Part shown: positions 14,735 through 15,838 of the stretch, in pieces | Layout of the letters: each line of letters opens with the position of its first letter | Numbering within the stretch: the stretch's first letter is position 1 | Source: a virus | DNA: 43,119 bases | Virus genome (UHGV): UHGV-0017337 | Reading direction: 5' to 3' (one strand) | Made by a program: the position numbers and the translations under genes | The notes under the pieces: generated by a model | Told to the model about the DNA's origin: nothing | The model's input: only the letters and a program-made list of their open reading frames with translations | The model's database searches: none

Positions 14735-15838
14735 ATGAGTAGGAAACGTTTAACCACAGAAGAGTTTATCACACGTGCCCGTGAAGTTCATGAGCACAAA
14801 TACGATTACTCGCTAGTGGAGTATGTTAAATCATCGGTTAAAGTTCGAATCATTTGTCCGATACACGGAGTGTTTGAACAGAGTCCTAATAATCATGTTT
14901 CAATGAAACAAGGTTGCCCGCAATGTGCTGTTGAACAACGATATTTGAACACCAGAGAATTCATTAAACATGCTCGTGAAGTTCACGGAGACCGTTACGA
15001 TTACTCATTGGTGGAATATAAACACAACCTGAGCAAAGTTAAAATTATCTGTCCTAAACATGGTGTATTTGAACAACGTCCATGTGACCACGTATCAAAG
15101 AAAAAAGGTTGCTCGGGTTGTGCCAATAATCAACGATTAACCACAGAAGCGTTTATCACTCGTGCTCGTGACATTCATGGGGATCGTTATGATTACTCAT
15201 TGGTGGAGTATGTGAACGCTCGTTCGTGTGTGCAAATCATCTGCCCTGAACACGGGATATTTGAACAAACTCCACATGTTCATTTAAAAAGCAGTGGTTG
15301 CCCACAGTGTGGTTCTGAACAAAAAGCAGAACAAAAACGTTTAGGTGCGGGAGAATTCATCACTCGTGCTCGTGACATTCATGGGGATCGTTACGATTAC
15401 TCATTGGTAGAGTATTTGAATAATCGTAGTAAAGTTCGAATCATCTGCTCTGAACATGGTGTATTTGAACAAACTCCTGATACTCATTTGAAAGGTTGTG
15501 CTTGCCCACAATGTTCACAAGCAGGTTTTAACCCGTCAGAACCTGGAACGCTCTACGTGTTAGCTGATGATAAACAGTATCCCACTCTGATTAAAATTGG
15601 TATTACAAATAACTTAAAACGACGACTACACCAACTACGACGCGAAACTCCACACCATGTGGTTAAACTCGTGTCGTATCCATTTCCACACGGCGCTGAT
15701 GCTTACAAACTGGAACAAGAGGTACACAAGGTCTTTCACGAACTTAATGCGCGTCTCAAAGGCTTTGACGGTGCTACAGAGTGGTTTAAATACTCTCCTG
15801 CAATCCTCGACTACATAAATGAAAAAGCCCGGAACTAA
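14735..15838 (+). CDS. T5orf172/GIY-YIG-like nuclease with four N-terminal Cys/His repeat modules (homing-endonuclease-like)
   Basis: C-terminal LYVLADD...IKIGIT...RR..QL...EWF signature; N-terminal 4x module FITRAREVHGDRYDYSLVEY..KV.IICP.HGVFEQ.P..H...GCPQC. Confidence 0.55.
   Translation: MSRKRLTTEEFITRAREVHEHKYDYSLVEYVKSSVKVRIICPIHGVFEQSPNNHVSMKQGCPQCAVEQRYLNTREFIKHAREVHGDRYDYSLVEYKHNLSKVKIICPKHGVFEQRPCDHVSKKKGCSGCANNQRLTTEAFITRARDIHGDRYDYSLVEYVNARSCVQIICPEHGIFEQTPHVHLKSSGCPQCGSEQKAEQKRLGAGEFITRARDIHGDRYDYSLVEYLNNRSKVRIICSEHGVFEQTPDTHLKGCACPQCSQAGFNPSEPGTLYVLADDKQYPTLIKIGITNNLKRRLHQLRRETPHHVVKLVSYPFPHGADAYKLEQEVHKVFHELNARLKGFDGATEWFKYSPAILDYINEKARN
15157..15416 (+). repeat. Intragenic direct repeat: two ~56-bp near-identical copies (~15157-15212 and ~15361-15416) encoding adjacent repeat modules
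   Basis: cactcgtgctcgtgacattcatggggatcgtta[t/c]gattactcattggt[g/a]gagtat read directly. Confidence 0.6.

Follow-up and report, generated by a model that had tools for sequence, protein, structure and literature searches.

In the 43,119-nucleotide stretch of viral DNA analysed here (UHGV virus genome UHGV-0017337, hereafter called the window), two genes encode proteins with an N-terminal array of Cys/His modules and a C-terminal T5orf172 domain, i.e. gene A (14735..15838, + strand, 367 amino acids (aa)) and gene B (31913..32788, + strand, 291 aa). A related module is found in a short open reading frame (ORF), ORF3 (23948..24316, - strand). It is probable, in our view, that both genes represent free-standing homing endonuclease genes of the T5orf172 class, which belongs to the GIY-YIG superfamily, and that ORF3 is a decayed third gene of this kind. 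The window regions around the three ORFs are 90–96% identical to Sashavirus/Nonanavirus (9NA-like) siphophages of E. coli and Salmonella, the matching phages being BDX09P1, KarinMuster_Bas82 (Bas82 below), PJ16, 536P12, AVIO78A, PDP46 and Sasha. No record identical to the window could be identified in the phage collection.

Domain composition of the proteins encoded by genes A and B

The three ORFs are present where the initial annotation had placed them, and its count of four modules versus three was reproduced with a hidden Markov model (HMM) specific to the module family, built from the seven modules of genes A and B. This model identifies four modules of about 62 residues in gene A (A1 14747-14935, A2 14942-15130, A3 15134-15319 and A4 15338-15523, corresponding to residues 5-67, 70-132, 134-195 and 202-263) and three in gene B (B1 31922-32107, B2 32114-32299 and B3 32294-32479, residues 4-65, 68-129 and 128-189). 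As the E-values per module range from 1e-35 to 1e-39, a chance repeat was rejected. In a six-frame scan of the whole window the sole additional module was that of ORF3 (E 3e-12, model positions 1-53), and no further copies of the module or of the T5orf172 domain were found beyond gene A, gene B and ORF3.

The C-terminal signature LYVLADD...IKIG[IV]T...RR..QL...EWF is found in both genes, within T5orf172 domains at 15536-15835 (gene A) and 32492-32785 (gene B). In Pfam, gene A matches DUF723 (E 1.4e-15), T5orf172 (2e-13), MUG113 (3.7e-13) and DUF4379 (1.1e-07), and gene B matches the same set. All these matches exceed the Pfam gathering scores: T5orf172 (PF10544) with 51.1 bits for gene A and 47.9 for gene B (cut-off 20), the closely related MUG113 (PF13455) with 50.3 and 49.0 bits (cut-off 22.3), DUF723 with 57.4 bits (cut-off 20.9) and DUF4379 with 32.3-37.4 bits (cut-off 24.5). 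When 80 single modules were tested one by one, 30 matched DUF723 and 25 matched DUF4379. The CapR domain (PF21817) was matched at E < 0.01 by just four of these 80; for gene B it reached 21.5 bits, below the gathering score of 24.2, and gene A had no match to it.

Both proteins belong to phrog_681 of the PHROGs database, annotated as 'endonuclease' (E 4e-115), and the module also matches phrog_559 ('HNH endonuclease'); a search of the proteins against NCBIfam gave no matches. Relatives of gene A could be identified by tblastn in 1090 phage records, including 'tcgB: putative homing endonuclease' of ICP1, and the orthologue in Bas82 is already annotated as 'endonuclease'. The 120 best database homologues have 2 to 8 modules by HMM count, and a motif search identified a T5orf172-like tail in 19 of them. 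Many database homologues combine 5-8 modules with a non-T5orf172 tail of 115-170 aa, and some sources label these 5-8-module proteins as 'very-short-patch-repair endonuclease'.

Catalytic domain and zinc-finger modules

The AlphaFold2 full-length model of the gene A protein has a mean pLDDT (predicted local distance difference test score) of 82.6, with well-predicted domains and a low pTM (predicted template modelling score), as is expected for beads that fold independently. Its C-terminal tail matches the GIY-YIG nucleases Slx1, I-TevI and UvrC, and in the model it has the GIY-YIG fold with a beta-beta-alpha-beta-alpha core. The GIY-YIG-like character that the initial annotation had ascribed to this domain is thus seen in the Pfam profile, in the structural match and in the conserved Tyr, Arg and Glu residues. 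In an alignment of 23 homologues, residues Y274, K287, G289, R297 and E349 are invariant, and Y274, R297 in helix 1 and E349 would be the Tyr, Arg and metal-binding Glu of the GIY-YIG active site, an assignment made by motif order and secondary structure and not by residue-level structural alignment.

The modules are characterized by a C-x2-H...C-x2-C pattern, which is present in all seven modules of genes A and B. Over 80 diverse modules, C37, C56 and C59 are invariant and H40 is at least 90% conserved. A single-module model made from these 80 modules (pLDDT 88.5) consists of a helix, a beta-hairpin bearing C37 and H40, a short helix, and a last helix with C56 and C59 at its N-terminus. By general zinc-finger classification, this combination of a hairpin knuckle (C37/H40) and a helix N-terminus (C56/C59) would correspond to a treble-clef arrangement. 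The model therefore suggests a treble-clef-like fold and not the zinc ribbon that had initially been proposed, and the Pfam description of DUF4379 likewise reads 'probable treble clef zinc finger'. Membership of DUF723/DUF4379 and the four conserved ligands support the module as a four-ligand zinc-finger module, with predicted zinc binding. Structure comparison of the module model revealed no solved structure resembling it, and a sequence profile search of the Protein Data Bank with either domain gave only chance matches to haemagglutinin. DUF723 and DUF4379 are treated as related to the CapR domain, for which DNA binding is experimental (PMC10448857; PMC8096241).

Insertion sites of the two cassettes

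A synteny comparison with close relatives revealed that both genes reside on cassettes that are precisely present or absent at the same sites. Together with ORF3, they occupy intergenic spacers beside conserved structural genes, namely the portal gene, the junction of the tail chaperone and tape-measure genes, and the prohead protease gene.

Cassette A (14462-15819, 1358 bp) is located on the opposite strand in place of a 14-bp spacer stretch TTAACCATAATATA of Sasha, AVIO78A and PDP46. In these phages the empty site consists of the tail assembly chaperone gene, a short spacer and then the tape-measure gene. The cassette comprises a promoter repeat, an immunity gene and gene A. Its left end (14462..14553, + strand) is a complete copy of the promoter element described below, with the motif at 14480-14495 followed by TTGACG. 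The cargo gene (14554..14733, + strand) encodes a superinfection immunity protein of 59 aa (Pfam Imm_superinfect, E 3.4e-17), with 1 nt between its stop codon and the start of gene A. Immunity and nuclease genes co-occur in Bas82, PJ16 and contig L018, and both are missing from Sasha, AVIO78A and PDP46. At the right end, gene A takes its final residues (part of EKARN) and its stop codon from the stem and loop of a bidirectional terminator hairpin (15825..15846), identified by a terminator scan; junction comparison showed the same hairpin in the cassette-less genomes, i.e. it is native to the empty site.

The two flanks of cassette A differ in their similarity to Sasha, AVIO78A and PDP46. On the right side, identity is 94-96% from 15815 onward. 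On the left side, similarity to these cassette-less phages ends at 14461, and the adjoining 5' part of the tape-measure gene (13224..14461, - strand) has been replaced or has diverged: the DNA is 74-76% identical over 14256-14461, cannot be aligned from 14255 down to about 13224 (13238 for AVIO78A), and is again 94-97% identical from about 13224 down to 11819. The tape-measure gene as a whole (11852-14437) is accordingly a mosaic in comparison with that of Sasha, with a nearly identical C-terminal part of about 450 aa, and an N-terminal part of about 400 aa that is about 30% identical to its counterpart and 110 aa shorter, the switch being near position 13224. Exchange or co-conversion may account for this diverged 5' tract.

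An exact 13-nt direct repeat AAAAAGCGACAAA (14 nt with the preceding T) occurs at 14467-14479 and 14718-14730, flanking the promoter and immunity-gene unit, and its right copy forms the last codons of the immunity gene. This repeat may be the footprint of a separate acquisition of the immunity module. A second variable slot separates the tail chaperone and tail tube genes (at about 16554-16612); opposite-strand ORFs are found there in Bas82, 536P12 and PDP46 (264 nt), AVIO78A (168 nt) and Sasha (gp43, 624 nt), and none in the window and PJ16.

Cassette B (31854-32774, 921 bp) replaces 53 bp of the spacer upstream of the portal gene in AVIO78A, 536P12, Sasha and Bas82. Its left end (31854..31912, + strand) contains a degenerate promoter copy, a sigma-70-like site and an AGGAG ribosome-binding site. 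As with gene A and its terminator, gene B ends within regulatory sequence that is native to the site: its final codons (QNNS) and TGA stop coincide with the A/T-rich upstream element and the -35 hexamer (TTGACG) of the native promoter of the downstream operon (32775..32813, + strand). The sequences around cassette B were compared between two carriers, the window and contig L015, and four non-carrier phages. In the 50 bp abutting the insert, 13 fixed substitutions or indels distinguish carriers from non-carriers, compared with 0-3 fixed differences in each of the other eleven 50-bp bins of the 600-bp flank. These 50 bp contain the start and leader of the portal gene (31804..31853, - strand), which thus has a variant allele linked to the nuclease gene, and the N-terminus of the portal protein reads MAKQHEQYEQ in carriers and MADQQFEQ in non-carriers. 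Judging from these alignments, the portal start in gene-less genomes is a candidate target region of the gene B nuclease, and the carrier allele would be either resistant or co-converted.

The possibility that immunity and nuclease genes form a recurrent unit was tested on a 59-aa ORF following the gene B orthologue in L015, and was rejected, as this ORF is not an immunity gene. The same contig, which is from a metagenomic relative, encodes a DUF723-only protein of 516 aa (7032-8582), a few kb downstream of its 4-module gene B orthologue.

Promoter repeats

The promoter motif CGTTTAAAATAATTCT occurs nine times in the window (allowing up to two mismatches), at positions 2163, 14480, 24671, 28532, 29674, 31873, 36424, 38100 and 40689, compared with 0.1 copies expected. 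It is part of a repeat of about 50 bp with the layout TTTAAAATAATTCT, then TTGAC(G/A)GATT(A/G)CA..., then a -10-like hexamer, and most copies precede an ATG by 40-70 nt. Several copies have a long spacer in common, GGATTACACAAGGACGTGTAACCTAC, which is identical where it starts at 14496 and 29690 and nearly so at 40705. Seven of the nine motif copies continue with TTGAC; in the one before gene B (31873-31888, + strand) the next bases are AAGCA, so that AAGCAG occupies the -35 position where TTGACR is expected. An identical degenerate copy is present in L015, upstream of the 4-module orthologue. The initial annotation was therefore correct in placing gene B behind a degenerate promoter copy. Tight expression control, and with it weak expression, is not supported in the same way, since a sigma-70-like site (TTGATA-17-TAAAAT, 31854-31882, + strand, 10/12 matches) overlaps this copy.

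The abundance of these repeats raises the question whether presence and absence of the cassettes could have arisen by ordinary homologous or illegitimate recombination between the ~50-bp promoter repeats, i.e. by shuffling of morons without involvement of a nuclease. The nine copies would provide the substrate, cassette B lies between two partial copies, and one copy adjoins the start of cassette A. Such shuffling leaves unexplained, however, why fixed differences cluster at the portal start, why a tract of the tape-measure gene has diverged, and why the same gene class recurs at three separate structural-gene junctions. We therefore give this explanation little credence as the sole source of the pattern, although it could still operate together with homing.

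Changes in array length

The initial annotation described the arrays as expandable, and a comparison of orthologues at the two loci agrees with this. At site A, four modules are present in the window and in P0001 (367 aa, 94% identical), and three in Bas82 (304 aa) and 536P12 (303 aa). The orthologue P0046 (235 aa), located between an immunity gene and a chaperone gene, has two modules and an intact nuclease domain. It corresponds to gene A minus exactly 396 nt, an in-frame deletion of two modules, with the crossover between 14992/15388 and 15013/15409, within the stretch that encodes the peptide HGDRYDYSLVEY and that the initial annotation had singled out for its high similarity. Two further site-A orthologues are truncated: that of BDX09P1 (213 aa, three modules) ends just after GTLYV, and that of PJ16 (203 aa, two modules) ends before the EWF motif. 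At site B, the window has three modules and the orthologue P0020 has four, beside a portal gene of identical length. The polymorphism and the mapped crossover of P0046 together indicate that arrays grow and shrink when modules recombine unequally within their conserved 5' part. Since intact genes with two, three and four modules are found at one insertion site, array length is not tightly tied to the homing locus.

A recent duplication had also been inferred from the ~95% identity of two stretches in adjacent modules. The identity itself is correct (53 of 56 positions, 94.6%, for 15157-15212 versus 15361-15416), but these stretches represent only the 5' part of modules A3 and A4, which over their full length share 81% of their nucleotides and 78% of their amino acids. 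Where both encode the peptide HGDRYDYSLVEY, the two modules have the same third codon base at 10 of 12 positions, compared with 4-7 of 12 in other module pairs with the same peptide. This excess points to a recent shared ancestry of the stretch that goes beyond protein constraint, and recent recombination or gene conversion in this 5' part describes it better than a recent duplication.

The site-A alleles also bear on the possibility that these proteins are domesticated weapons, which no longer home but cut rival phages or satellites in the manner of ICP1 Odn, with the array providing the specificity. T5orf172 nucleases have been co-opted in this way before (PMC8263062; PMC10448857). Gene A shares its transcript with a superinfection immunity gene, which likewise functions in competition between phages, and PADLOC reports weak matches (1e-5 to 1e-6), via the T5orf172 domain, to the candidate defence family PDC-S57. 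On the other hand, two site-A orthologues are truncated in otherwise intact sister phages and many relatives are gene-less, which implies that the genes are dispensable, and the precise junctions and the variants in the adjacent flanks are what homing predicts. We consider an exclusive role as weapons unlikely. The two roles are not mutually exclusive; the marker exclusion by the seg genes of T4 is a precedent.

A third, decayed gene at the protease locus

ORF3 encodes 122 aa from an ATG at 24316 (MDPNIRV), which is the start annotated in relatives, and not from the TTG at 24367. The ORF extends 4 nt into the start of an XkdF-like protease gene, which has a GTG start codon. In its module the first Cys is replaced by Asp and the CxxC is missing. 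The ORF also contains a perfect 21-nt tandem repeat (24071-24140, 3.3 copies) that encodes EPVTTAV, of which two copies are found in PJ16, three in PDP46, BDX09P1 and the window, and about 1.5 in contig L014. ORF3 is common to PDP46 (annotated 'DUF723 family protein'), PJ16 and BDX09P1, and is missing from Sasha.

The origin of ORF3 becomes apparent from P0049 (372 aa), which is encoded in L014 directly upstream of a 136-aa XkdF-like protease gene, the position held by ORF3 in the window. P0049 starts with the same Cys-less module and EPVTTAV repeat, and continues with three intact modules and a T5orf172 domain ending in RGQSP. Window positions 24527-24108 match L014 1-420 (96%) and 24010-22800 match L014 1271-2484 (91%), such that just 97 nt of the window stand in place of 850 nt of L014, a net loss of about 750 nt in ORF3 relative to P0049. 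The C-terminus of ORF3 (YSSEMLEF...RGQSP) corresponds, in diverged form, to the last helix of the nuclease domain, which reads YSSEMLDYI...RGQSP in P0049 and YSPAILDYI in genes A and B. No significant similarity was found between the 97 nt in the middle of ORF3 and the replaced 850 nt of L014, so that the argument rests on the two ends of the ORF. As both of these match the ends of a full-length nuclease gene at the same site, the alignments identify ORF3 as an internally deleted remnant of a T5orf172 homing endonuclease gene. The initial description of one degenerate module without its Cys/His residues and of a missing nuclease domain is accurate in itself; the independent one-module gene that it implied was rejected on the basis of the same match.

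Perfect tandem repeats are also found at the edges of the window (1-77, a 30-nt unit in 2.6 copies, and 43051-43119, a 21-nt unit in 3.3 copies). They are rich in GCA/CCT/GTA, and the ORFs containing them extend past the window.

The position of ORF3 at the head of the capsid-morphogenesis operon, and the location of both cassettes in or on copies of the promoter element, could be taken to indicate that A and B are mainly sequence-specific DNA-binding (auto)repressors acting on the repeated promoter element, with an inactive or secondary nuclease. I-TevI acting at its operator is one precedent. Another is the nuclease-less CapR, which represses a capsid operon via the -35 and upstream sequence (PMC8096241). 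Two findings oppose this: the assigned catalytic Tyr, Arg and Glu are invariant in A, B and the intact orthologues, and ORF3 has no zinc ligands, whereas the Cys residues of CapR are required for DNA binding (PMC8096241). A mainly regulatory role hence appears highly improbable to us. Similarly speculative, with a slim chance of being correct, is the idea that the arrays recognize the phage's own ~50-bp promoter repeat or adjoining sequence, which would then serve both as landing pads and as regulatory sites, with ORF3 domesticated at the head of the capsid operon. Retention of ORF3 as a functional piece and not as junk is hinted at by a pooled pN/pS (ratio of nonsynonymous to synonymous changes) of roughly 0.3 among four phages, a value derived from just 2-8 changes per pair. 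If true, this would join nuclease mobility, module-array evolution and phage promoter architecture in one system.

A proposed homing model for genes A and B

We propose that the proteins are built as 'beads on a string', in which N-terminal zinc-finger modules of about 62 aa would bind DNA mostly independently and position the C-terminal GIY-YIG-type catalytic domain. This domain would cut the gene-less allele in a co-infecting relative, and repair by recombination with the carrier genome would transfer the gene, together with its cargo and part of its flanks, to the genome that had been cut. The array itself changes length when the conserved 5' stretches of two modules undergo unequal homologous recombination. 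From the combined features described above we infer nuclease activity, binding of zinc and DNA, the location of the targets and active homing of A and B. As far as can be judged from the genomes compared, flank variation co-segregates with the genes as expected, in the cluster at the portal start for gene B and in the diverged 5' region of the tape-measure gene for gene A. The degenerate copies, i.e. the truncated orthologues in PJ16 and BDX09P1 and the ORF3 remnant, likewise appear to fit a cycle of invasion and decay.

Several points weigh against this homing interpretation. The second motif of the catalytic domain is K287-I-G289 (KIG), where GIY-YIG nucleases have YIG. The match of the modules to CapR is below threshold and their ligands differ (CxxH...CxxC versus CxxC...CxC in CapR), and DNA binding by the modules is consequently deduced through family relatedness. 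Gene B was compared with one other carrier genome only, and the flank comparison for cassette A revealed no nuclease-gene-linked differences on the right side. Finally, recombination between promoter repeats without nuclease action could be an alternative source of presence and absence.

This phage group represents a compact natural series for relating module number to target recognition in T5orf172 homing endonucleases, in which intact 2-, 3- and 4-module alleles at one site occur beside empty sites, truncated copies and a remnant left by deletion. Candidate targets are confined to two narrow regions, the start of the portal gene and the junction of the tail chaperone and tape-measure genes. 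For annotation purposes, three ORFs listed as 'hypothetical' or 'DUF723' are explained, as are the mosaic boundaries that Sasha/9NA-like phages show within their portal and tape-measure genes; some of these phages are used in collections such as BASEL.

Comparison with known systems

The architecture of genes A and B and the recombination between their repeats have already been described for T5orf172 homing endonuclease genes (Barth, Dunham and Seed 2023). In that survey, 87% of the genes had CapR, DUF723 or DUF4379 (in places spelled DUF4397) zinc-finger domains, which are often repeated as 'beads on a string'; recombination between intragenic repeats leads to in-frame deletions, such as one of 228 bp in ICP1 gp174, and the genes are located at boundaries of genetic exchange and are accompanied by cargo (PMC10448857). 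Genes A and B share all these properties with the ICP1-type genes, i.e. N-terminal zinc-finger repeats with a C-terminal T5orf172 domain, repeat recombination, exchange boundaries and cargo. They differ in the host lineage, as the window phage is a 9NA/Sasha-like coliphage with two intact homing endonuclease genes and one decayed remnant, in their sites (portal, tail chaperone/tape-measure and protease genes), and in their modules, which are of the DUF723/DUF4379 flavour with C-x2-H...C-x2-C ligands instead of the CxxC...CxC of CapR. Specific to the window are the allelic series of two, three and four modules with its mapped crossover, the ORF ends within a terminator and a promoter, the cluster of fixed differences at the portal start, and the remnant at the protease gene.

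A nuclease-less derivative of a T5orf172 homing endonuclease gene is CapR, from the Vibrio cholerae satellite PLE, which retains a module of the same broad zinc-finger family, is linked to a capsid operon promoter and depends on its four Cys residues to bind DNA (Netter et al. 2021, PMC8096241). ORF3 is similarly nuclease-less and heads a capsid-morphogenesis operon, but it has lost its ligands and looks like a deletion remnant, whereas CapR has kept all four Cys residues. Barth et al. (2021, PMC8263062) report that the T5orf172 protein Odn (Gp88) of ICP1 acts as an origin-directed nuclease. Its catalytic domain is of the family found in A and B, with conserved Arg and Glu, but it has a RepA_N DNA-binding domain and a role in defence against satellites and not in homing. 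In the GIY-YIG enzymes SegA-G, free-standing homing endonucleases of T4, and in I-TevI, the catalytic domain is N-terminal and DNA is bound by NUMOD or helix-turn-helix modules; in A and B this order is reversed, and the corresponding part is a tandem array of a single zinc-finger type.

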